Source: a virus
DNA length: 11,726 bases
Reading direction: 5' to 3' (one strand)
Virus genome (UHGV): UHGV-1586087
How positions within the stretch are numbered: position 1 is the stretch's first letter; each line of letters opens with the position of its first letter. The notes under the pieces are model-generated. The model worked only from the letters and a program-made list of their open reading frames with translations. It was not told the origin of the DNA and did not search any database. The translations under genes and the position numbers were made by a program. Shown piece by piece: positions 1-11,726 of this stretch.

Positions 1-44
1 CACCGTCTAATTCGTCGGCAGCGTCAGATGTGTATAAGAGACAG
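1..44. other. Synthetic Illumina Nextera adapter: P5 tail CAC (1-3), 8-nt index-like CGTCTAAT (4-11), TCGTCGGCAGCGTC (12-25), Tn5 mosaic end AGATGTGTATAAGAGACAG (26-44). Not biological.
   Basis: Exact match, read directly, to the Nextera read-1 adapter and 19-bp Tn5 mosaic end as I know them. The inverted partner is at the other window end. Confidence 0.95.
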
Positions 45-407
45 ACCGGTGGTGCTGTAACGCTTTTCCAGAAACGCATTACCGAACACCAGAAAATCCA
101 GCACAAAGCGGCTGAAATCCTGCTGAGAAAGCCACGGATGCGGAATAAACGTTGAAGCCAGAATATTGCGTTTAACGTAAATCGGCGAGCTGTGATGCAC
201 GGCAGCACGCAGGCTTTTTGCCAGACCGGTAAAGCTGACCGGTGGCTCATACCATCTGCCGTTACTGATGCACTCGACGTAATCCAGAATGTCACGGCGG
301 TCGAGAACCGGCACCGGCTCGCCAAAGGTGAATGCCTCCATTTTCGGTGCACTGGCGGTCATTGTTTTTGCCGCAGGTTGCGGTGTTTTCCCTTTTTTCT
401 TGCTCAT
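45..407 (-). CDS. Q: Portal (capsid portal vertex) protein, N-terminal part only; 5'-partial window artefact, gene continues beyond the insert end
   Basis: Minus-strand ORF with ATG at 407..405. Translation MSKKKGKTPQPAAKT...DYVECISNGRWYEPP is recognised as the N-terminus of P2 gpQ. It lies downstream of and coupled to P, as in P2. The last residues of the supplied ORF (...GLSLIHI) are translated from adapter, not phage DNA. Confidence 0.85.
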
Positions 408-2179
408 CAGTAAAACTCCAGAATGGTGGATGTCAGCGGGGTGCTGATACTGGCGGTGAGTGGCTCATTTAACAGGGCGTGCATGGTCGCCCAGGCGAGG
501 TCGGCGTGGCTGGCTTCCTCGCTGCGGCTGGCCTCATAGGTGGCACTGCGTCCGCTGCTGGTCATGGTCTTGCGGATAGCCATAAACGAGCTGGTGATGT
601 CGGTGGCGCTGACGTCATATTCCAGACAGCCACGGCGGATGACGTCTTTTGCCTTGAGCACCATTGCGGTTTTCATTTCCGGCGTGTAGCGGATGTCGCG
701 CGCGGCGGGATAGAACGAGCGCACGAGCTGGAACACGCCGACACCGAGGCCGGTGGCATCAATACCGATGTATTCGACGTTGTATTTTTCGGTGAGTTCG
801 CGGATGGATTCAGCCTGGGTGGCAAAGTCCATGCCTTTCCACTGGTGACGCTCAAGTATTCTGAATTTGCCACCGGCCACCACCGGCGGTGCCAGTACCA
901 CGCATCCGGCACTGTCGCCACGGTGTGACGGGTCGTAACCAATCCATACCGGGCGGGAGCCGAACGGATTGGCGGCAAAGGGTGCATAGTCTTCCCATTC
1001 TTCCAGCGTGTCGACCATGCAGCGTTGCAGCTCCTCGAACGGGAACACCGACGCCTTGTCGTCAACAAATTCACACATGAACAGGTTTTTAAAATCGTCG
1101 GCGCTGTTTTCACGTTTGAGCTGCTCAATGTCGAACAACGTGCAGCCGCCTTTCAGCGCGTCCTCAATGGTGACAATCTGCCGCCACTGGCCGTCCGCAC
1201 AGAGAAGACCTCCGGCAAGTGCGTTATGACTGACGTCGATTTCCACGCGTTCGGCGGCGCTGGCGCGTCCCCGGTTAAACAGTTCACCGGACCAGAACGG
1301 ATAGGCGTCGTGCGCCAGCGTGGACGGGGTGGAGAAATAGGTCGAGCGCAGGTGACTCTGTGAGGCCATACCTGATGCCACCTTTCGCAGTACCTGAAAA
1401 TTCGGGATCCAGAAAATCTCGTCGACGTACAGGTCGCCGTTATGGCTCTGTGCGGTGTTGGAGTTGGTGCCGAGAAAAATCAGTTTTGCGCCGTTATTGC
1501 CCAGGACAATCGGGTCACCGGTCAGGTCAACGTCAACCAGACGGGCAAAGGCGATGATGTATTCGCGGAACACATACGCCTGCGTTTTACTGGCCGACAG
1601 AAAAATCTGGTTATGACCGGTTTTCAGGGCGCGCAGCAGCGCCTCGCGGGAAAAATAAAACGTTGCGCCAATCTGGCGGGATTTCAGGATATCGCGGATG
1701 CGGTGCTCAAGCCCGGCGCGATACCAGTGCAACTGATATTCGAAAGACTGCTCAAAGAAAATCTGCTCCAGCTTTTCGATGGCCTCGTCACTGAAAAAAT
1801 TCTTTTTCGGTTTGCGACGCCCGCCTTTGTTGCGGTTAGCGACGTTCGGATTAAGGTCTGCCTCGTTGCCGGTCTGGCTGTAGCGGTTGACCCGTGCCAG
1901 TCGTTCAATCTGGCGTCCGAGCAGGTCAATTTCCTTGAAGTCACCGCCGGTTTTCTGCGGTTTGATGATGAGCTGGGTCAGCCGCGCTTCCAGACTCATT
2001 TCGACACGGCTGATGGGGGCAACGCTGTCCCAGCCGTCGCGCTGTTTCCAGCTCTGCACCGTCGGGCGTTTCATCTGCAACATGGCGGCAATCTGCGGCA
2101 CGGAAAACCCCTGCCAGTACAGCAGCGCCGCCTGACGACGCGGGTCGTGTAAAAGAGTGGTGTCTGTGGTGATGGTCAT
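407..2179 (-). CDS. P: Terminase large (ATPase) subunit
   Basis: 600-aa minus-strand ORF in the track begins at a TTG (2209..2207). An in-frame ATG at 2179..2177 (MTITTDTTLLHDP...) has a GAGG Shine-Dalgarno about 6 nt upstream and gives 590 aa. Walker-B-like motif GDLYVDE is present. The TGA stop (409..407) overlaps the Q ATG (407..405). Recognised as P2 gpP. Confidence 0.9.
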   Translation of the reverse strand: MTITTDTTLLHDPRRQAALLYWQGFSVPQIAAMLQMKRPTVQSWKQRDGWDSVAPISRVEMSLEARLTQLIIKPQKTGGDFKEIDLLGRQIERLARVNRYSQTGNEADLNPNVANRNKGGRRKPKKNFFSDEAIEKLEQIFFEQSFEYQLHWYRAGLEHRIRDILKSRQIGATFYFSREALLRALKTGHNQIFLSASKTQAYVFREYIIAFARLVDVDLTGDPIVLGNNGAKLIFLGTNSNTAQSHNGDLYVDEIFWIPNFQVLRKVASGMASQSHLRSTYFSTPSTLAHDAYPFWSGELFNRGRASAAERVEIDVSHNALAGGLLCADGQWRQIVTIEDALKGGCTLFDIEQLKRENSADDFKNLFMCEFVDDKASVFPFEELQRCMVDTLEEWEDYAPFAANPFGSRPVWIGYDPSHRGDSAGCVVLAPPVVAGGKFRILERHQWKGMDFATQAESIRELTEKYNVEYIGIDATGLGVGVFQLVRSFYPAARDIRYTPEMKTAMVLKAKDVIRRGCLEYDVSATDITSSFMAIRKTMTSSGRSATYEASRSEEASHADLAWATMHALLNEPLTASISTPLTSTILEFY

Positions 2180-2352
2180 GAATACCTCGCCGTGATGAAT
2201 ACACGGCAAGGCTACTGAGTCGCGCCCCGCGATTCGCTAAGGTGCTGTTGTGTCAGTGATAAGCCATCCGGGACTGATGGCGGAGGATGCGCATCGTCGG
2301 GAAACTGATGCCGACATGTGACTCCTCTAATCACTATTCAGGACTCCTGACA
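2180..2352. promoter_or_regulatory. Divergent late-promoter region between P (leftward) and O (rightward); expected site of activator (Ogr-type)-dependent late promoters
   Basis: 173-bp non-coding gap between divergently transcribed operons. Contains a perfect 10-bp palindrome GATGCGCATC (2286-2295) flanked by direct repeats ACTGATG (2273-2279 and 2304-2310), and TGT-rich sequence at 2246-2253. I could not find a perfect TGT-N12-ACA element. Promoter placement follows from P2 biology, not a verified motif. Confidence 0.45.
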
Positions 2353-3207
2353 ATGGCAAAAAAAGTCTCAAAATTCTTTCGTATCGGCGTTGAGGGTGAC
2401 ACCTGTGACGGGCGTGTCATCAGTGCGCAGGATATTCAGGAAATGGCCGAAACCTTTGACCCGCGAGTCTATGGTTGCCGCATTAACCTGGAACATCTGC
2501 GCGGCGTCCTGCCTGACGGTATTTTTAAGCGTTATGGCGATGTGGTCGAACTGAAGGCCGAAAAGATTGACGATGATTCGGCGCTGAAAGGCAAATGGGC
2601 GCTGTTTGCGAAAATCACCCCGACCGATGACCTTATCGCGATGAACAAGGCCGCGCAGAAGGTCTATACCTCAATGGAAATTCAGCCGAACTTTGCCAAT
2701 ACCGGCAAATGTTATCTGGTGGGTCTGGCCGTCACCGATGACCCGGCAAGCCTCGGCACGGAATACCTGGAATTCTGCCGCACGGCAAAACACAACCCCC
2801 TGAACCGCTTCAAATTAAGCCCTGAAAACCTGATTTCAGTGGCAACGCCCGTTGAGCTGGAATTTGAAGACCTGCCTGAAACCGTGTTCACCGCCCTGAC
2901 CGAAAAGGTGAAGTCCATTTTTGGCCGCAAACAGGCCAGCGATGACGCCCGTCTGAATGACGTGCATGAAGCGGTGACCGCTGTTGCTGAACATGTGCAG
3001 GAAAAACTGAGCGCCACTGAGCAGCGCCTCGCTGAGATGGAAACCGCTTTTTCCGCACTTAAGCAGGATGTGACTGACAGGGCGGATGAAACCAGCCAGG
3101 CATTCACCCGCCTGAAAAACAGTCTCGACCACACCGAAAGTCTGACCCAGCAGCGCCGCAGCAAGGCCACCGGTGGTGGCGGTGACGCCCTGATGACGAA
3201 CTGCTGA
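2353..3207 (+). CDS. O: Capsid scaffolding protein
   Basis: ATG at 2353 (MAKKVSKFFRIGVEGDTCDGRV...) with AGGA 9-10 nt upstream gives 284 aa. The track ORF starts upstream at 2287, probably a spurious extension. Recognised as P2 gpO. Confidence 0.9.
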   Translation: MAKKVSKFFRIGVEGDTCDGRVISAQDIQEMAETFDPRVYGCRINLEHLRGVLPDGIFKRYGDVVELKAEKIDDDSALKGKWALFAKITPTDDLIAMNKAAQKVYTSMEIQPNFANTGKCYLVGLAVTDDPASLGTEYLEFCRTAKHNPLNRFKLSPENLISVATPVELEFEDLPETVFTALTEKVKSIFGRKQASDDARLNDVHEAVTAVAEHVQEKLSATEQRLAEMETAFSALKQDVTDRADETSQAFTRLKNSLDHTESLTQQRRSKATGGGGDALMTNC

Positions 3208-3265
3208 CCGGCGTCAGTCAGTCCGGGAAAACCTTCACGATTAACCCTTAATTTCAGGAAAAACT

Positions 3266-4339
3266 ATGCGCCAGGAAACCCGCTTTAAATTTAATGCCTA
3301 CCTGTCCCGTGTTGCCGAACTGAACGGCATCGACGCCGGTGATGTGTCGAAAAAATTCACCGTTGAACCGTCGGTCACCCAGACCCTGATGAACACCATG
3401 CAGGAGTCCTCTGACTTTCTGACCCGCATCAACATTGTGCCGGTCAGCGAAATGAAAGGGGAAAAAATTGGCATCGGTGTCACCGGCTCCATCGCCAGCA
3501 CCACCGACACCGCCGGTGGCACCGAGCGTCAGCCGAAGGACTTCTCGAAGCTGGCGTCAAACAAGTACGAATGCGACCAGATTAACTTCGATTTTTATAT
3601 CCGCTACAAAACGCTGGACCTGTGGGCGCGTTATCAGGATTTCCAGCTCCGTGTCCGTAACGCCATTATCAAACGCCAGTCCCTTGATTTAATCATGGCC
3701 GGTTTTAACGGCGTGAAGCGTGCCGAAACCTCTGACCGCAGCAGCAATCCGATGCTGCAGGATGTGGCGGTCGGCTGGCTGCAGAAATACCGCAATGAAG
3801 CCCCGGCGCGCGTGATGAGTAAGGTCACTGACGAGGAAGGCCGCACCACCTCTGAGGTTATCCGCGTGGGTAAGGGCGGTGATTATGCCAGCCTCGATGC
3901 ACTGGTGATGGATGCGACCAACAACCTGATTGAACCGTGGTATCAGGAAGACCCGGACCTTGTGGTGATTGTGGGACGTCAGCTACTGGCGGACAAGTAT
4001 TTCCCCATCGTTAACAAGGAGCAGGATAACAGCGAAATGCTGGCCGCTGACGTCATCATCAGCCAGAAACGCATCGGTAACCTGCCGGCGGTACGCGTCC
4101 CGTACTTCCCGGCGGATGCGATGCTCATCACGAAGCTGGAAAACCTGTCCATCTACTACATGGATGACAGCCATCGCCGCGTGATTGAGGAAAACCCGAA
4201 ACTCGACCGCGTGGAGAACTACGAGTCAATGAACATTGATTACGTGGTGGAAGACTACGCCGCCGGTTGTCTGGTGGAAAAAATCAAGGTCGGTGATTTC
4301 TCCACACCGGCTAAGGCGACCGCAGAGCCGGGAGCGTAA
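3266..4339 (+). CDS. N: Major capsid protein
   Basis: 357-aa ORF with AGGA about 7 nt upstream of the ATG. Translation MRQETRFKFNAYLSRVAELNGIDAGDV... is recognised as P2 gpN, in the expected position after O. Confidence 0.92.
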   Translation: MRQETRFKFNAYLSRVAELNGIDAGDVSKKFTVEPSVTQTLMNTMQESSDFLTRINIVPVSEMKGEKIGIGVTGSIASTTDTAGGTERQPKDFSKLASNKYECDQINFDFYIRYKTLDLWARYQDFQLRVRNAIIKRQSLDLIMAGFNGVKRAETSDRSSNPMLQDVAVGWLQKYRNEAPARVMSKVTDEEGRTTSEVIRVGKGGDYASLDALVMDATNNLIEPWYQEDPDLVVIVGRQLLADKYFPIVNKEQDNSEMLAADVIISQKRIGNLPAVRVPYFPADAMLITKLENLSIYYMDDSHRRVIEENPKLDRVENYESMNIDYVVEDYAAGCLVEKIKVGDFSTPAKATAEPGA

Positions 4340-4342
4340 CCG

Positions 4343-5086
4343 ATGACGAGTCCCGCACAGCGCCACATGATGCGGGTCTCGGCAGCGATGACCGCGCAGC
4401 GGGAAGCCGCCCCGCTGCGACATGCAACTGTCTATGAGCAGATGCTGGTTAAGCTCGCCGCAGACCAGCGCACACTGAAAGCGATTTATTCAAAAGAGCT
4501 TAAGGCCGCGAAAAAACGCGAACTGCTGCCGTTCTGGTTGCCGTGGGTGAACGGCGTGCTGGAGCAGGGCAAAGGTGCACAGGATGACATTCTGATGACG
4601 GTCATGCTGTGGCGTCTGGATACCGGCGATATTGCCGGTGCGCTGGAGATTGCCCGTTATGCCCTGAAGTACGGTCTGACCATGCCGGGTAAACACCGCC
4701 GCACCCCGCCGTACATGTTCACCGAGGAGGTGGCGCTTGCGGCCATGCGTGCTCACGCTGCCGGTGAGTCTGTGGATACCCGCCTGCTGACGGAGACCCT
4801 TGAACTGACCGCCACGGCTGACATGCCTGATGAAGTGCGCGCAAAGCTGCACAAAATCACCGGTCTGTTTCTGCGTGACGGTGGTGATGCCGCCGGTGCG
4901 CTGGCTCACCTGCAACGTGCGACACAGCTCGACTGTCAGGCAGGCGTCAAAAAAGAGATTGAACGACTGGAGCGGGAGCTGAAACCGAAGCCGGAGCCGC
5001 AGCCCAAAGCGGCCACCCGTACCCCGCGTAAGACCCGGAGCGTGACACCGGCAAAACGTGGACGCCCGAAAAAGAAAGCCAGTTAA
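4343..5086 (+). CDS. M: Terminase small (endonuclease/DNA-recognition) subunit
   Basis: 247-aa ORF starting 3 nt after the N stop, with GGAG 8 nt upstream inside the N 3' end. Lys/Arg/Pro-rich C-terminal tail. Recognised as P2 gpM. Confidence 0.88.
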   Translation: MTSPAQRHMMRVSAAMTAQREAAPLRHATVYEQMLVKLAADQRTLKAIYSKELKAAKKRELLPFWLPWVNGVLEQGKGAQDDILMTVMLWRLDTGDIAGALEIARYALKYGLTMPGKHRRTPPYMFTEEVALAAMRAHAAGESVDTRLLTETLELTATADMPDEVRAKLHKITGLFLRDGGDAAGALAHLQRATQLDCQAGVKKEIERLERELKPKPEPQPKAATRTPRKTRSVTPAKRGRPKKKAS

Positions 5087-5116
5087 CAACCGAATGCGCC
5101 CCGCGCCAGGGCGGCA

Positions 5117-5157
5117 CGCCGGTCAGTGAGGGTGAATCACCTGACGCTGTACCGGCG
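5117..5157. repeat. Nested inverted repeats in the M-L spacer: outer arms CGCCGGT / ACCGGCG (5117-5123 and 5151-5157) enclosing the palindrome GGTGA-a-TCACC (5131-5141)
   Basis: Read directly from the sequence. GC-rich, no trailing T-run. Function unknown. Confidence 0.5.
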
Positions 5158-5185
5158 TCCACCGCCCGACTTTTCAGAGGTAGTC

Positions 5186-5695
5186 ATGATGACGCTGATT
5201 ATTCCGCGAAAGGAGGCTCCCGTGTCCGGTGAGGGTACGGTGGTCATCCCGCAACCGGCAGGCGACGAGCCGGTGATTAAAAACACGTTCTTTTTTCCCG
5301 ATATCGACCCGAAGCGCGTCCGGGAACGTATGCGCCTTGAGCAGACCGTCGCCCCCGCCCGTCTGCGTGAGGCCATCAAGTCAGGCATGGCGGAGACGAA
5401 TGCGGAGCTGTACGAGTACCGCGAACAGAAAATTGCCGCCGGTTTTACGCGTCTGGCGGACGTTCCGGCGGACGACATCGACGGTGAAAGCATCAAAGTT
5501 TTTTACTACGAGCGCGCCGTGTGTGCGATGGCGACCGCGTCGCTTTATGAGCGTTATCGCGGCGTGGATGCCAGTGCGAAAGGCGACAAGAAGGCTGACA
5601 GCATTGACAGCACCATTGATGAACTGTGGCGGGATATGCGCTGGGCGGTGGCGCGTATCCAGGACAAGCCGCGCTGCATCGTGAGTCAAATCTGA
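5186..5695 (+). CDS. L: Head completion / capsid stabilisation protein
   Basis: ATG at 5186 (MMTLIIPRKEAPVSGEG...) with GAGG 5 nt upstream gives 169 aa. The track ORF starts at an upstream in-frame GTG (5126), which I treat as an extension. Stop overlaps the X start (TGATGA at 5693-5698). Confidence 0.88.
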   Translation: MMTLIIPRKEAPVSGEGTVVIPQPAGDEPVIKNTFFFPDIDPKRVRERMRLEQTVAPARLREAIKSGMAETNAELYEYREQKIAAGFTRLADVPADDIDGESIKVFYYERAVCAMATASLYERYRGVDASAKGDKKADSIDSTIDELWRDMRWAVARIQDKPRCIVSQI

Positions 5696-5898
5696 TGAAG
5701 ACCTTTGCGCTACAGGGCGACACGCTCGACGCCATTTGTGTCCGGTATTACGGGCGCACTGAGGGCGTGGTCGAGGCCGTGCTCGCCGCAAATCCGGGAC
5801 TGGCTGAACTGGGCGCGGTGCTGCCGCACGGCACCGCCGTCGAACTGCCCGACGTTCAGACCGCGCCCGTGGCTGAAACTGTCAATCTGTGGGAGTAA
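5695..5898 (+). CDS. X: Tail protein X, small LysM-like protein
   Basis: ATG at 5695 overlapping the L stop gives 67 aa (MKTFALQGDTLDAICVRYYGRTEGVV...LPHGTAVELPD). The pattern GDTL...I...YG...NP...L..G..L.LP resembles a LysM fold. Recognised as P2 gpX. Confidence 0.85.
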   Translation: MKTFALQGDTLDAICVRYYGRTEGVVEAVLAANPGLAELGAVLPHGTAVELPDVQTAPVAETVNLWE

Positions 5899-5901
5899 CG
5901 C

Positions 5902-6183
5902 ATGACAGCAGAAGAAAAAAGCGTCCTGTCGCTTTTCATGATTGGGGTGCTGATTGTTGTCGGCAAGGTGCTTGCCGGTGGTGAACCCATCACCCCGCGT
6001 CTGTTTATCGGGCGCATGTTGCTCGGTGGTTTTGTCTCGATGGTTGCCGGTGTTGTTCTGGTGCAGTTTCCTGACCTGTCACTGCCTGCGGTGTGCGGCA
6101 TCGGCTCCATGCTGGGTATCGCCGGTTATCAGGTGATTGAGATTGCCATTCAGCGCCGCTTTAAGGGCAGGGGGAAACCGTAA
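5902..6183 (+). CDS. Y: Holin
   Basis: 93 aa with about three hydrophobic helices and a basic C-terminus (QRRFKGRGKP). GGAG 6 nt upstream. Sits directly upstream of the endolysin. Recognised as P2 gpY. Confidence 0.88.
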   Translation: MTAEEKSVLSLFMIGVLIVVGKVLAGGEPITPRLFIGRMLLGGFVSMVAGVVLVQFPDLSLPAVCGIGSMLGIAGYQVIEIAIQRRFKGRGKP

Positions 6184-6680
6184 TGCCGGTAATCAACACG
6201 CATCAGAATATCGCTGCCTTTCTCGACATGCTGGCCGTGTCCGAAGGGACGGCGAATCATCCGCTGACGAAAAACCGGGGCTATGACGTGATAGTCACCG
6301 GACTGGACGGGAAGCCGGAAATCTTCACCGACTACAGTGACCACCCGTTCGCACATGGCCGACCGGCGAAGGTGTTTAACCGTCGCGGTGAAAAATCCAC
6401 GGCCTCCGGTCGCTATCAGCAGCTTTACCTGTTCTGGCCGCATTACCGCAAACAGCTTGCCCTGCCGGATTTCAGTCCGTTGTCACAGGACAGACTCGCC
6501 ATTCAGTTGATCCGCGAACGCGGTGCGCTGGATGACATCCGGGCGGGGCGCATTGAACGCGCCATTTCACGCTGTCGCAATATCTGGGCGTCCCTGCCGG
6601 GTGCCGGTTACGGTCAGCGTGAGCATTCACTGGAAAAACTGGTCACCGTCTGGCGTACCGCTGGCGGCGTACCGGCTTAA
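6183..6680 (+). CDS. K: Endolysin (phage lysozyme/muramidase family)
   Basis: 165 aa; ATG overlaps the Y stop (TAATG at 6181-6185). Recognised as P2 gpK. The catalytic class is taken from knowledge of P2, not from motifs I verified here. Confidence 0.88.
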   Translation: MPVINTHQNIAAFLDMLAVSEGTANHPLTKNRGYDVIVTGLDGKPEIFTDYSDHPFAHGRPAKVFNRRGEKSTASGRYQQLYLFWPHYRKQLALPDFSPLSQDRLAIQLIRERGALDDIRAGRIERAISRCRNIWASLPGAGYGQREHSLEKLVTVWRTAGGVPA

Positions 6681-6694
6681 ACGGAGTAAACACC

Positions 6695-7120
6695 ATGAAG
6701 AAATTATCCCTTTCACTGATGCTGAACGTGTCGCTGGCGCTGATGCTGGCACTGTCCCTGATTTACCCGCAGAGCGTGGCCGTCAGTTTTGTCGCCACCT
6801 GGGCGATTCTGGCGACGGTTATCTGTGTGGTTGCCGGTGGTGTCGGCGTGTATGCCACGGAGTATGTACTGGAGCGCTACGGGCGGGAGCTGCCGCCGGA
6901 ATCGCTGGCCGTGAAGATTGTCACGTCGCTGTTTTTGCAGCCGGTGCCGTGGCGCAGACGGGCGGCGGCTCTGGTGGTGATGGTGGTGACGTTTATCTCG
7001 CTGGTCGCTGCCGGGTGGATTTTTACCGCGCTGATTTATCTCGTGGCGTCGGTGTTCTTCCGGCTGATACGTACGGCCTGCCGTCAGCGTTTTGAGGGGC
7101 GGGAACCATGTCAAAGCTGA
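6695..7120 (+). CDS. lysA: Lysis-timing membrane protein LysA (antiholin-like, multi-pass)
   Basis: 141 aa with three to four long hydrophobic segments (LSLMLNVSLALMLALSLIY, WAILATVICVVAGGVGVYA, AALVVMVVTFISLVAAGWIFTALIYLVASVFF). GGAG 8 nt upstream. Position and sequence match P2 lysA. Confidence 0.82.
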   Translation: MKKLSLSLMLNVSLALMLALSLIYPQSVAVSFVATWAILATVICVVAGGVGVYATEYVLERYGRELPPESLAVKIVTSLFLQPVPWRRRAAALVVMVVTFISLVAAGWIFTALIYLVASVFFRLIRTACRQRFEGREPCQS

Positions 7121-7533
7121 TGATTGTGCTGGTTGTGTTGTTATCGCTGGCTGTGGCGGGACTGTTTCTGGTGAAGCATGAAAACGCCAGCCTGCGCGTC
7201 TCGCTGGACAGGGCAAACAATGTCGCCAGCGGGCAGCAGACGACCATCACCATGCTGAAAAACCAGCTTCATGTTGCCCTTACCAGGGCAGACAAAAACG
7301 AGCTGGCGCAGGTGGCACTGCGTCAGGAGCTGGAGAACGCCGCGAAGCGTGAAGCACAGCGCGAGAAAACCATCACGAGGTTACTCAATGAAAACGAAGA
7401 TTTTCGCCGCTGGTACGGCGCTGACCTGCCTGATGCTGTGCGCCGGTTGCACCAGCGTCCGGCCTGCACCGACGCCAGTGATTGTCCACAACGCCTGCCC
7501 GAAAGTGAGCCTTTGCCCGATGCCGGGCAGTGA
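7108..7533 (+). CDS. lysB: Rz-like inner-membrane spanin (i-spanin) LysB
   Basis: 141 aa with an N-terminal transmembrane segment (LMIVLVVLLSLAVAGLFLV), then a charged coiled-coil-like region and a Pro-rich C-terminus. Overlaps the lysA 3' end by 13 nt. Matches P2 lysB. Confidence 0.85.
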   Translation: MSKLMIVLVVLLSLAVAGLFLVKHENASLRVSLDRANNVASGQQTTITMLKNQLHVALTRADKNELAQVALRQELENAAKREAQREKTITRLLNENEDFRRWYGADLPDAVRRLHQRPACTDASDCPQRLPESEPLPDAGQ

Positions 7534-7678
7534 CCCGCAGACGAACGGCGATTTAAGTGCCGATATCCGGCAGCTTGAAAACGCGCTGGCACGCTGTGCC
7601 AGCCAGGTAAAAATGATTAAACACTGTCAGGACGAAAACGATGCTCAAACCCGACAGCCTGCGCAGGGCGCTGACTGA
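7388..7678 (+). CDS. lysC: Rz1-like outer-membrane lipoprotein spanin (o-spanin) LysC, in the +1 frame overlapping the lysB 3' end and the R 5' end
   Basis: ATG at 7388 with GAGG 7 nt upstream gives 96 aa (MKTKIFAAGTALTCLMLCAGCTS...), with a lipoprotein-type signal, Cys-containing lipobox-like LCAGC and a Pro-rich mature part. The track ORF (7271-7678) is the same frame with a spurious upstream extension. Confidence 0.8.
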   Translation: MKTKIFAAGTALTCLMLCAGCTSVRPAPTPVIVHNACPKVSLCPMPGSDPQTNGDLSADIRQLENALARCASQVKMIKHCQDENDAQTRQPAQGAD

Positions 7679-8108
7679 TGCCGTCACGGTGCTGAAAACC
7701 AGTCCAGAGATGCTTCGGATATTCGTGGATAACGGGAGTATTGCCTCCACGCTGGCGACGTCGCTGTCGTTCGAAAAGCGTTACACGCTCAATGTGATTG
7801 TGACCGACTTTACCGGTGATTTTGACCTGCTCATCGTGCCGGTGCTGGCGTGGCTGCGGGAAAATCAGCCCGACATCATGACCACCGACGAAGGCCAGAA
7901 AAAGGGCTTCACGTTTTATGCAGACATCAACAATGACAGCAGCTTTGATATCAGCATCAGTCTGATGCTGACCGAGCGCACGCTGGTCAGCGAGGTTGAT
8001 GGTGCGCTGCATGTGAAGAATATCCCGGAACCCCCGCCGCCGGAGCCGGTCACCCGCCCGGTGGAGCTTTATATCAATGGCGAACTGGTGAGCAAGTGGG
8101 ATGAATGA
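7641..8108 (+). CDS. R: Tail completion protein R
   Basis: 155 aa; ATG at 7641 lies inside the lysC 3' end. Recognised as P2 gpR. Confidence 0.88.
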   Translation: MLKPDSLRRALTDAVTVLKTSPEMLRIFVDNGSIASTLATSLSFEKRYTLNVIVTDFTGDFDLLIVPVLAWLRENQPDIMTTDEGQKKGFTFYADINNDSSFDISISLMLTERTLVSEVDGALHVKNIPEPPPPEPVTRPVELYINGELVSKWDE

Positions 8109-8553
8109 GTTTAAGCGTTTTGAAGACCGGCTGACCGGACTGATTGAATCGCTGTCACCGTCAGGGCGTCGGCGACTGAGTGCCGAACTGGCGAAACGTC
8201 TGCGTCAGAGTCAGCAGCGTCGGGTGATGGCACAGAAAGCCCCGGACGGCACACCCTACGCGCCACGTCAGCAGCAGAGCGCCAGAAAAAAGACCGGTCG
8301 CGTTAAGCGAAAAATGTTTGCGAAACTTATCACCAGTCGTTTTTTGCATATCCGCGCCAGCCCTGAACAGGCATCAATGGAGTTTTACGGCGGAAAGTCA
8401 CCGAAAATCGCCAGTGTGCATCAGTTTGGTCTGTCGGAAGAAAACCGGAAGGACGGTAAGAAAATTGATTATCCGGCGCGTCCTCTGCTCGGCTTTACCG
8501 GTGAGGATGTGCAGATGATTGAAGAGATTATCCTGGCTCACCTCGACCGTTAG
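8101..8553 (+). CDS. S: Tail completion protein S
   Basis: 150 aa; start overlaps the R stop (ATGAATGA at 8101-8108). Recognised as P2 gpS. Confidence 0.88.
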   Translation: MNEFKRFEDRLTGLIESLSPSGRRRLSAELAKRLRQSQQRRVMAQKAPDGTPYAPRQQQSARKKTGRVKRKMFAKLITSRFLHIRASPEQASMEFYGGKSPKIASVHQFGLSEENRKDGKKIDYPARPLLGFTGEDVQMIEEIILAHLDR

Positions 8554-8584
8554 TTGTGCCATTCCCGACACCTCATCGTCACAT

Positions 8585-8608
8585 TGCCGCCGGTATGACC
8601 CGGCGGCA
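8585..8608 (+). terminator. GC-rich hairpin in the S-V spacer (stem GCCGCCGG / CCGGCGGC, 6-nt loop); candidate terminator or attenuator for the O-to-S operon, possibly overlapping the V late promoter
   Basis: Perfect 8-bp inverted repeat (8586-8593 and 8600-8607), extended by a T-A pair at 8585/8608. The downstream sequence is only weakly T-rich (catccttcccgtt), so intrinsic-terminator status is uncertain. Confidence 0.35.
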
Positions 8609-8619
8609 TCCTTCCCGTT

Positions 8620-9255
8620 ATGAACACTCTCGCAAATATTCAGGAACTCGCGCGCGCACTGCGCAACATGATCCGCACCGGCATTATCGTCGAAACCGAC
8701 CTTAACGCCGGTCGCTGCCGTGTGCAGACCGGCGGCATGTGCACCGACTGGCTTCAGTGGCTGACCCATCGCGCCGGACGTTCGCGCACATGGTGGGCAC
8801 CTTCCGTGGGGGAACAGGTGCTGATTCTGGCCGTGGGCGGTGAACTCGACACGGCGTTCGTTCTGCCGGGGATTTATTCCGGCGATAACCCCGCGCCGTC
8901 TGCGTCGGCGGATGCCCTGCATATCCGTTTCCCTGACGGGGCGGTGATTGAATATGAACCCGAAACCAGTGCACTCACGGTAAGCGGAATTAAAACAGCC
9001 AGCGTGACGGCTTCTGATTCTGTTACTGCCACGGTGCCGGTGGTCATGGTGAAAGCATCAACCCGCGTCACCCTGGACACACCGGAGGTGGTCTGCACCA
9101 ACAGGCTGATTACCGGCACGCTGGAAGTGCAGAAGGGCGGGACGATGCGCGGCAACATTGAACACACCGGCGGTGAACTCTCATCAAACGGTAAGGTACT
9201 GCATACCCATAAACACCCCGGCGACAGCGGCGGCACAACCGGGAGTCCTTTATGA
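8620..9255 (+). CDS. V: Baseplate central spike protein V
   Basis: 211 aa, recognised as P2 gpV. The C-terminal His-rich tip HTHKHPGDSGG is consistent with the metal-binding spike apex described for P2 gpV. Confidence 0.9.
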   Translation: MNTLANIQELARALRNMIRTGIIVETDLNAGRCRVQTGGMCTDWLQWLTHRAGRSRTWWAPSVGEQVLILAVGGELDTAFVLPGIYSGDNPAPSASADALHIRFPDGAVIEYEPETSALTVSGIKTASVTASDSVTATVPVVMVKASTRVTLDTPEVVCTNRLITGTLEVQKGGTMRGNIEHTGGELSSNGKVLHTHKHPGDSGGTTGSPL

Positions 9256-9599
9256 CAGCGCGTTATCTCGGAATGAATCGCAGTGATGGCCTGACTGTCA
9301 CTGACCTTGAGCATATCAGCCAGAGTATCGGCGATATCCTGCGCACACCGGTCGGCTCACGGGTGATGCGTCGTGATTACGGCTCGTTGCTGGCGTCAAT
9401 GATTGACCAGCCGCAGACCCCGGCGCTTGAGTTGCAGATTAAGGTCGCCTGTTACATGGCCGTGCTGAAATGGGAACCCCGCGTCACCCTGTCATCCGTC
9501 ACCACGGCGCGCAGTTTTGACGGGCGAATGACGGTCACGTTAACCGGCCAGCACAACGACACCGGCCAGCCACTTTCGTTAACCATCCCTGTGAGTTGA
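9252..9599 (+). CDS. W: Baseplate wedge protein W (T4 gp25-like)
   Basis: 115 aa; ATGA overlap with the V stop (9252-9255); GGGAG 6 nt upstream. Recognised as P2 gpW. Confidence 0.9.
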   Translation: MTARYLGMNRSDGLTVTDLEHISQSIGDILRTPVGSRVMRRDYGSLLASMIDQPQTPALELQIKVACYMAVLKWEPRVTLSSVTTARSFDGRMTVTLTGQHNDTGQPLSLTIPVS

Positions 9600-9603
9600 A
9601 ACC

Positions 9604-10512
9604 ATGCCGATTATCGACCTGAACCAGCTACCCGCACCGGATGTGGTCGAGGAGCTGGACTTTGAAACCATTCTTGCCGAACGCAAGGCGACACTGATTT
9701 CCCTTTACCCGGAAGACCAGCAGGAGGCGGTCGCCCGTACCCTGACGCTGGAATCTGAGCCTCTCGTCAAACTGCTGGAGGAAAATGCTTATCGTGAGCT
9801 TATCTGGCGTCAGCGTGTGAATGAGGCTGCACGGGCGGTGATGCTGGCCTGTGCCGCCGGTAATGACCTTGATGTGATTGGTGCCAATTACAACACCACA
9901 CGCCTGATTATCACCCCGGCAGATGATTCGACCCTCCCGCCGACACCGGCCGTGATGGAATCTGACACCGATTATCGTCTGCGTATTCAGCAGGCGTTTG
10001 AAGGTTTAAGCGTCGCCGGGTCGGTGGGGGCCTATCAGTATCATGGTCGAAGTGCCGACGGGCGTGTCGCAGATATCTCTGTCACCAGTCCTTCTCCGGC
10101 CTGCGTCACCATCTCTGTGCTGTCACGTGAAAATAACGGTGTGGCATCCGAAGACCTGCTGGCGGTGGTGCGCAACGCCCTTAATGGTGAGGACGTGAGA
10201 CCGGTGGCCGACCGTGTGACCGTGCAGTCTGCCGTCATCGTTGAATACCAGATAAATGCCACGCTTTACCTTTACCCTGGCCCCGAAAGCGAACCCATTC
10301 GCGCTGCCGCCGTGAAAAAACTGGAAGCGTATATCACGGCACAGCACCGGCTGGGGCGCGACATCCGACTGTCTGCCATTTATGCCGCTTTGCATGTGGA
10401 AGGCGTGCAGCGTGTCGAACTGGCTGCACCGCTGGCCGACATCGTGCTCAACAATACGCAGGCGTCTTTCTGTACCGAATACAGCGTCGTGACCGGAGGC
10501 TCGGATGAGTGA
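9604..10512 (+). CDS. J: Baseplate assembly protein J (T4 gp6-like wedge)
   Basis: 302 aa, recognised as P2 gpJ; starts 4 nt after the W stop. Confidence 0.9.
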   Translation: MPIIDLNQLPAPDVVEELDFETILAERKATLISLYPEDQQEAVARTLTLESEPLVKLLEENAYRELIWRQRVNEAARAVMLACAAGNDLDVIGANYNTTRLIITPADDSTLPPTPAVMESDTDYRLRIQQAFEGLSVAGSVGAYQYHGRSADGRVADISVTSPSPACVTISVLSRENNGVASEDLLAVVRNALNGEDVRPVADRVTVQSAVIVEYQINATLYLYPGPESEPIRAAAVKKLEAYITAQHRLGRDIRLSAIYAALHVEGVQRVELAAPLADIVLNNTQASFCTEYSVVTGGSDE

Positions 10513-11116
10513 TTCGCGACTGCTGCCGACCGGCTCATCACCGCTTGAAGTCGCTGCCGCAAAAGCCTGTGCGGAAATTGAAAAAACGCCGGTCAGTATT
10601 CGTGAGCTGTGGAACCCGGACACCTGCCCGGCAAATCTGCTGCCGTGGCTGGCGTGGTCATTTTCGGTTGACCGCTGGGATGATAAGTGGCCGGAAGCGA
10701 CAAAACGCGCTGTTATCCGCGATGCGTATTTCATTCACTGCCATAAGGGCACTATAGGCGCAATCCGGCGTGTGGTGGAGCCGCTCGGCTATCTGATTGA
10801 GGTGAGGGAGTGGTGGCAGCTCAACGAGGAGCCGGGGACGTTCCGCATCGTTGTTGGCGTGCTTGAGCAGGGTATTACCGAGGAAATGTATCAGGAGCTG
10901 GAGCGCCTCGTTGCTGATGCAAAACCGGCAAGCCGCCATCTGACGGGACTGGCTATCAGTTTAAGTACAACCGGCAACATTTTTGCCGGTGCGGGATGCT
11001 ATCACGGTGACGCCCTGACGGTTTATCCCTACACCCCGGAGGCCATTATTGTCGGAGGGGATTATTTCCCGGCCTCGGCCATTCATTTAATTGATAACCT
11101 GAGAGTAAACGCATGA
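10505..11116 (+). CDS. I: Baseplate / tail-fibre attachment protein I
   Basis: 203 aa; ATG at 10505 overlaps the J 3' end by 8 nt. The N-terminal two thirds are recognised as P2 gpI-like. I recall P2 gpI as somewhat shorter, so the C-terminus may differ; this is unverified. Confidence 0.82.
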   Translation: MSDSRLLPTGSSPLEVAAAKACAEIEKTPVSIRELWNPDTCPANLLPWLAWSFSVDRWDDKWPEATKRAVIRDAYFIHCHKGTIGAIRRVVEPLGYLIEVREWWQLNEEPGTFRIVVGVLEQGITEEMYQELERLVADAKPASRHLTGLAISLSTTGNIFAGAGCYHGDALTVYPYTPEAIIVGGDYFPASAIHLIDNLRVNA

Positions 11117-11678
11117 CAGTGAAATACTACGCCATTCTGACTAATCAGGGCGCAGCACGGCTGGCTAACGCGACGATGCTCGGCAGTAAGCTGAATCTGA
11201 CGCAAATGGCCGTTGGTGATGCGAATGGTGTCTTGCCGACACCAGACCCGGCACAGACAAAACTGATTAACCAGAAACGCATCGCGCCGCTGAATCTTCT
11301 GAGTGTTGACCCGAACAACCAGAGCCAGATTATTGCGGAGCAAATCATCCCTGAGAACGAGGGCGGATTCTGGATCCGTGAGATTGGGCTTTATGATGAT
11401 GAAGGCGTACTCATTGCGGTGGCGAACTGCCCGGAAACGTACAAACCGCAGTTGCAGGAAGGCAGTGGTCGTACCCAGACTATCCGCATGATTCTGGTTG
11501 TCACGAATACCGAAGCTATTACGCTGAAAATCGACCCGTCGGTGGTACTGGCGACCCGTAAATACGTGGATGATGAAGTCCTGGAATTAAGGCTGTATGT
11601 GGATGATCAGATGAGAAACCACATTGCCGCACAGGATCCTCATACCCAGTATGCACAGAAACATAATCCGACATTTAC
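11113..11678 (+). CDS. H: Tail fibre protein, N-terminal 188 codons only; 3'-partial, open to the insert end
   Basis: ATG at 11113 overlaps the I stop (ATGA). My own translation gives MTVKYYAILTNQGAARLANATMLGSKLNLTQMAVGDANGVLP...EGGFWIREIGLYDDEGVLIAVAN...GSGRTQTIRMILVV... with no stop before the adapter. Conserved phage tail-fibre N-terminal motifs are present (MAVGD, GGFW.RE.GLYDD.G.LIAVAN, EGSGR.QT.RM). It is absent from the ORF track because no stop is reached. Confidence 0.85.
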
Positions 11679-11726
11679 CTGTCTCTTATACACATCTCCG
11701 AGCCCACGAGACTCGACGTCATCTCG
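11679..11726. other. Synthetic Illumina Nextera adapter: Tn5 mosaic end CTGTCTCTTATACACATCT (11679-11697), CCGAGCCCACGAGAC (11698-11712), 8-nt index-like TCGACGTC (11713-11720), start of P7 ATCTCG (11721-11726). Not biological.
   Basis: Exact match, read directly, to the reverse-complement Nextera read-2 adapter layout as I know it. Confidence 0.95.

Follow-up and report, generated by a model that had tools for sequence, protein, structure and literature searches.

Nextera adapter sequence at both ends of a contig carrying a P2-like late-gene block

The stretch of DNA analysed here (UHGV virus genome UHGV-1586087, 11,726 nt, hereafter the window) carries at positions 45..11678 the late genes of a P2-like (Peduovirus) E. 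coli phage or prophage, as a block that is collinear with P2 from gene Q to gene H. A partial Q and P lie on the minus strand and are followed on the plus strand by O-N-M-L-X-holin-lysozyme-LysA/B/C-R-S-V-W-J-I and a partial H. With terminase P, scaffold O, capsid N and small terminase M among its genes, as given by gene calls with Pfam and by the RefSeq annotation of a relative, this is an ordinary P2 late-gene block. The genuine insert is bounded on both sides by short terminal segments (1-44 and 11679-11726) that have no counterpart at these places in the relatives and that affect the reading of the genes at both edges.

The window represents one entire contig. An exact look-up of the product of the ORF called at 24..407 returned a single contig, NODE_787_length_11726_cov_11.630880 of the ENA assembly ERZ652702. 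The name of this contig gives a coverage of about 11.6x and is formatted as in SPAdes or metaSPAdes assemblies.

The limits of the phage sequence are sharply defined by comparison with relatives. In megablast, the insert at 45-11678 was covered completely (100%) by a single collinear alignment to each of several P2-like phages, at 97-98% identity; among these are MET_P1_103_31, pro483, S164 and the P2 prophage of strain T22. When the first 700 bases were compared by megablast with 50,697 phage records, the 103 near-full matches started at query base 45, and the matches of the last 727 bases to phage records ran up to window position 11678/9; base 11679 (C) is common by chance to the genome and to the mosaic end described below. 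The same limits were found with complete E. coli genomes, of which 1,480 of 5,426 matched the window over 45-11679 with up to 98.5% identity; none of the matches listed extended into either terminal segment. The first-pass annotation had taken the left edge of the window for a library-preparation boundary and not a genomic junction, and the start of the similarity to relatives exactly at base 45 bears this out. The record of Peduovirus P22H1, which covers query positions 12-700, was considered as a case of adapter contiguous with phage DNA and was rejected, as the adapter sits elsewhere in that record (1-31 and 1294-1329).

What the relatives carry beyond these limits is also clear. To the left of base 45, phages S164 and P22H1 and the prophage of E. 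coli 1332KP read ...TCCAGTCTGATGACCTT, a conserved portal-gene sequence that alignments showed to be unrelated to the adapter; the natural left junction consists of ...GATGACCTT followed directly by ACCGGTGG. To the right of position 11678, the relative goes on with CGGAGAACC..., and the expected genomic continuation is GGAGAACC.... A natural 28-mer across the left junction was present in at least 120 IMG/VR contigs. The first-pass annotation had held that its reading would fall if the terminal segment were found contiguous with phage DNA in independent, non-Nextera assemblies; the 32-mer spanning the junction of adapter and phage sequence had no match in IMG/VR, in 185,579 GTDB species genomes or in the JGI metagenomes.

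The left terminal segment can be resolved completely into parts of a sequencing adapter. Read directly, window positions 1-44 are CAC, CGTCTAAT, TCGTCGGCAGCGTC and AGATGTGTATAAGAGACAG, after which ACCGGTGG... begins at base 45, and they are identical at all 44 positions to the Illumina Nextera or Nextera XT dual-index adapter, with the mosaic end adjoining the insert. The bases CAC (1..3, plus strand) are the last three of the Illumina P5 flow-cell sequence AATGATACGGCGACCACCGAGATCTACAC, whose end, ...GATCTACAC, is printed directly before the i5 index in PMC7589761 (Appendix B). The following 8-mer (4..11, plus strand), which had been described as index-like, is a catalogued index, Nextera XT v2 S510, given as CGTCTAAT in the index list of PMC7589761 (Appendix B). 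Next come the Nextera read-1 sequencing-primer site TCGTCGGCAGCGTC, which is the 5' part of the oligo Tn5ME-A (12..25, plus strand; exact match; PMC4248319), and the 19-bp synthetic hyperactive Tn5 mosaic end AGATGTGTATAAGAGACAG (26..44, plus strand), which is identical to the published sequence (PMC4248319) and adjoins the insert with its 3' end. The whole of Tn5ME-A, the 33-mer TCGTCGGCAGCGTCAGATGTGTATAAGAGACAG, thus matches exactly at 12-44. Tn5ME-A, Tn5ME-B and Tn5MErev are oligos for the Illumina system given by Picelli et al. 2014 (PMC4248319), Tn5MErev being the 19-mer complementary to the mosaic end, and both Nextera overhang sequences together recur in 1,733 further papers. Neither the 33-mer nor the 19-bp mosaic end was matched in 200 dinucleotide-preserving shuffles of the window, and none is expected by chance.

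The first-pass annotation had assigned bases 4-44 to a Nextera adapter ending in the mosaic end, had proposed exact string matching as the check and had named a failure to match the published adapter as grounds for giving up the assignment. Exact matching placed the 33-mer at 12-44 and the mosaic end at 26-44, in agreement with those coordinates. Four features of a Nextera i5 adapter, namely the mosaic end, the read-1 site, a kit index with the P5 end ...CAC and a similarity boundary, were found for 1-44. The segment retains the inner 44 of the 70 bases of the i5 adapter, as the contig ends before reaching the first 26 bases of P5.

The right end of the window has the corresponding structure. 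Positions 11679-11726, read directly, are CTGTCTCTTATACACATCT, CCGAGCCCACGAGAC, TCGACGTC and ATCTCG. The first part (11679..11697, minus strand) is a second 19-bp mosaic end, which faces inward, reads CTGTCTCTTATACACATCT on the plus strand and is an exact match. The second, CCGAGCCCACGAGAC (11698..11712, minus strand), is the reverse complement of the Nextera read-2 primer site, the 5' part of Tn5ME-B (PMC4248319), and the complement of Tn5ME-B is matched exactly over 34 bases at 11679-11712. It is followed by the i7 index TCGACGTC (11713..11720, plus strand), which is Nextera XT v2 N729, listed with this sequence in PMC7589761 (Appendix B), and by ATCTCG (11721..11726, plus strand), the first six bases of the P7 flow-cell complement ATCTCGTATGCCGTCTTCTGCTTG and the reverse complement of ...CGAGAT, with which the P7 primer is printed as ending (PMC7589761). 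Both ends therefore show the canonical order, with P5 tail, i5, read-1 site and mosaic end on the left, and complementary mosaic end, complementary read-2 site, i7 and the start of the P7 complement on the right. The window contains two copies of the mosaic end, both terminal and both facing inward. An internal adapter or a chimeric join elsewhere in the window was ruled out, because there is no third mosaic end and relatives align to the insert in a single collinear stretch. These results add to the first-pass annotation that bases 1-3 and the other end of the contig are likewise adapter, and that a complete SPAdes-style contig makes up the window.

The presence of a Tn5-derived sequence next to a portal gene might also be read as a natural Tn5 or IS50 inserted in that gene, with the window starting inside the transposon end, as the 19-mer at 26-44 does derive from the Tn5 ends and is within 3 mismatches of the outside end. 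The outside and inside 19-bp ends were combined by engineering into the hybrid mosaic end, which the same transposase recognizes (PMC4248319; PMC2566895), and the 19-mer in the window is exactly this synthetic form, which departs at 3 positions from the outside end CTGACTCTTATACACAAGT printed in PMC2566895; the inside end had no match within 3 mismatches in the window. Beyond the 19-mer lie a read-1 primer site, a catalogued index and a P5 tail, and not IS50 sequence. At the opposite contig end, 11.6 kb from the first, a second mosaic end with its read-2 adapter also faces inward, which is the layout of library adapters, whereas an inserted transposon would show outward-facing ends flanked by phage sequence. 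In addition, the genes in the window are all P2 late genes, with no transposase gene among them, and in the related E. coli prophages (1,480 genomes; among the matches listed) nothing is inserted at this place. The window differs from a natural Tn5 or IS50 insertion in the sequence of its ends, in their direction and in its gene content, and we give this explanation a vanishingly small probability.

Commercial mutagenesis transposons carry the same 19-bp mosaic end. An engineered mini-transposon in a P2 prophage, from EZ-Tn5-type mutagenesis or a Tn-seq library, could for this reason place a mosaic end at base 45, and the junction would then be the real insertion site of a mutant. What lies outward of the mosaic end, however, is TCGTCGGCAGCGTC, then a sample index of 8 nt and finally P5; these belong to a sequencing library and not to a marker cassette, and the opposite end of the contig carries the ME-B, i7 and P7 parts. 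The source is moreover a contig of a metagenome-type assembly in ENA with about 11.6x coverage. Such an insertion is in our view extremely improbable.

The adapters at the two ends alter two genes. The ORF called at 24..407 (minus strand, 127 amino acids) is chimeric: it comprises 121 genuine portal residues, followed by LSLIHI and a TGA stop from the adapter, the stop being the complement of 24-26. The first-pass annotation had stated that the portal gene Q is truncated by the window edge and that the last residues of this ORF are translated from adapter; the cut can now be placed after codon 121 of 344, and the adapter-derived part amounts to these six residues and the stop. The genuine 5' part of the P2-type gene Q lies at 45..407 (minus strand), where codons 1-121 of 344 are ended by the contig edge. 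Over its first 121 residues, the ORF product is 100% identical to the corresponding part (residues 1-121) of the 344-amino-acid portal protein of S164. In a full-length portal relative, the Pfam family PF04860 (Phage_portal) was found at residues 89-327, and the 127-residue ORF, which holds only about 33 residues of this domain, scored with no Pfam family by itself. The portal assignment rests on the 100% identity to an annotated full-length portal protein, because Pfam gave no family for the 127-residue ORF; judged by its sequence, the fragment is a genuine piece of gene Q. Like P2 gpQ, it occupies the P2 position and overlaps the stop of terminase gene P; it differs in being a fragment of 121 of the 344 codons and in its C-terminal LSLIHI, which is not portal sequence.

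At the other end, the truncated tail-fibre gene H (11113..11726, plus strand) contains 189 genuine codons and then 15 adapter codons, CLLYTSPSPRDSTSS, without a stop before the contig ends. The start of this gene was taken from an alignment with the CDS annotated as 'phage tail protein' in the best relative (RefSeq annotation; L005, 12569-13861). The first-pass annotation had warned that any reading of the left edge as a chimeric protein or an insertion would be wrong, and this warning proved justified, since both caps are adapter and the natural junction sequence in relatives is a different one.

Taken together, window positions 1-44 are almost certainly the inner 44 bases of a Nextera i5 adapter, left on a short-read contig through absent or incomplete trimming. 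The exact sequence, order and orientation of the parts show that the sample DNA was cut by Tn5 transposase carrying the ME-A and ME-B oligos, which attached the mosaic ends to it; base 45 is the tagmentation cut site in the P2-like portal gene, with ME-A joined there and ME-B joined at base 11678. They show likewise that S510 with P5 and N729 with P7 were then added by index PCR. Inserts shorter than the read length were probably read through into the adapter, the reads were presumably not fully trimmed, and the assembler presumably extended both ends of NODE_787 into this read-through where the genomic path stopped; the two caps would come from different fragments. Translation across the junction by a gene caller then gave the 127-residue chimera of portal and adapter and the H fragment with its adapter-coded tail. 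Nothing observed speaks against this account. As the retained adapter lengths of 44 and 48 nt fit no single k-1 value, we assume that they were limited by the read length and not by a hub in the de Bruijn graph.

The A-type and B-type adapters are oriented exactly as in one valid library molecule, so that the window might instead be one real 11.7-kb molecule (P5-i5-insert-i7-P7), such as long reads from a tagmented library could yield. The contig name, which is in SPAdes format and states 11.6 as the k-mer coverage, argues against this, and an insert of 11.6 kb is too long for clustering on an Illumina flow cell. The pairing of an A with a B adapter, on either side, is moreover expected in half of the contigs that are randomly capped at both ends, and GTDB contigs with the A adapter at both ends do exist (L172, L196, L197 and L202). 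A single molecule of this kind is very unlikely, and it would leave the verdict unchanged, because the 44 bases are adapter either way.

It is also conceivable, if unlikely, that the assembly stops at base 45 in Q and at base 11678 in H mark real discontinuities in the sample, with the adapter capping ends that already existed. Such ends could, for instance, be those of a cryptic prophage that is truncated, or mosaic boundaries that vary between strains where several P2-like prophages occur together. Even if this were true, the 44 bases would still be adapter.

The adapter is not confined to this contig. The 33-mer was found in 30 phage records, with Paenibacillus, Listeria, Vibrio, Bacillus, Acinetobacter, Salmonella and Escherichia among the unrelated hosts, and most copies lie within about 200 nt of the record end. 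Many of these 30 GenBank and RefSeq records belong to the LR595xxx and LR597xxx series or are their RefSeq copies, with the adapter at the record ends. A few of the records have internal copies that overlap an annotated CDS, among them copies in MK373775.1 (vB_EcoM_WFK, 149749-149781, long tail fibre proximal subunit) and in MZ092003.1 (Paenibacillus phage Pd_22F, 27885-27928, recombinase-like). The record of Peduovirus P22H1 (LR595870.1; RefSeq NC_049386.1) starts with Nextera read-1 adapter at positions 1-31, and at 1294-1329 it has a 36-nt in-frame insertion (GGG followed by TCGTCGGCAGCGTCAGATGTGTATAAGAGACAG) in the annotated terminase ATPase CDS VUD37963.1. This insertion, which is missing from the window and from phage S164, gives the deposited terminase protein 12 adapter-encoded residues. 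The main text of Olsen et al. 2020 (PMC7552041) reports the use of Nextera XT, yet contains neither P2_2H1 nor LR595 or LR597 accessions, and we draw no link to it.

Among complete E. coli genomes, the search with the 33-mer matched 1 of 5,426, NZ_CP071328.1 of strain 4114. A full-length i5 adapter, slightly degenerate, lies inside this RefSeq 'complete genome' at about 3147799-3147868 (L004, 1475-1544), in an intergenic position upstream of yibL; it consists of P5 with 3 mismatches, the S510 index CGTCTAAT, the read-1 site and a mosaic end with 2 mismatches.

In GTDB, at least 120 species-representative contigs (L126-L245), spread over bacteria and archaea that are not related to one another, contained the 33-mer. 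Their sources include many MAGs, UMGS gut genomes and Streptomyces NRRL isolates, and some of the contigs are capped at both ends. Among the matches listed, 119 of 128 copies face inward and lie within 80 nt of a contig end. The 8 bases before the copies include recurring 8-mers such as CTCTCTAT, GTAAGGAG and ACTGCATA, which are S502, S505 and S506 according to PMC7589761, and CGTCTAAT (S510) precedes the adapter six times among the copies listed, in 6 other contigs. The spread over unrelated hosts, at contig ends, identifies the sequence as a laboratory reagent and not a mobile element. Adapter remnants at contig ends of public assemblies are a known class of contamination, for which VecScreen and FCS-adaptor screen, and the layout of the window matches this class. 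Nothing of substance sets the window apart from the other remnants; here both ends are capped, and both caps fall in called or callable proteins.

Such an artefact can spread through databases. In a public protein and contig collection, the 127-residue chimera of portal and adapter on NODE_787 of ERZ652702 is recorded as a called gene, and residues encoded by the adapter are thus already in a public protein database. Annotated genes in reference phage records contain the same adapter as well, and many species-representative contigs end in it.

In summary, the adapter remnant is a laboratory artefact without biological meaning, which belongs to a well-known class and holds no biological novelty, and its relevance is one of quality control only. 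As the edges of the window are library-preparation boundaries, any reading of a fusion, an insertion, a truncation or a novel C terminus there is wrong, and this concerns positions 1-44 and 11679-11726, the ORF at 24..407 and the end of gene H. The contig is to be clipped to 45-11678 and both chimeric protein ends are to be disregarded.
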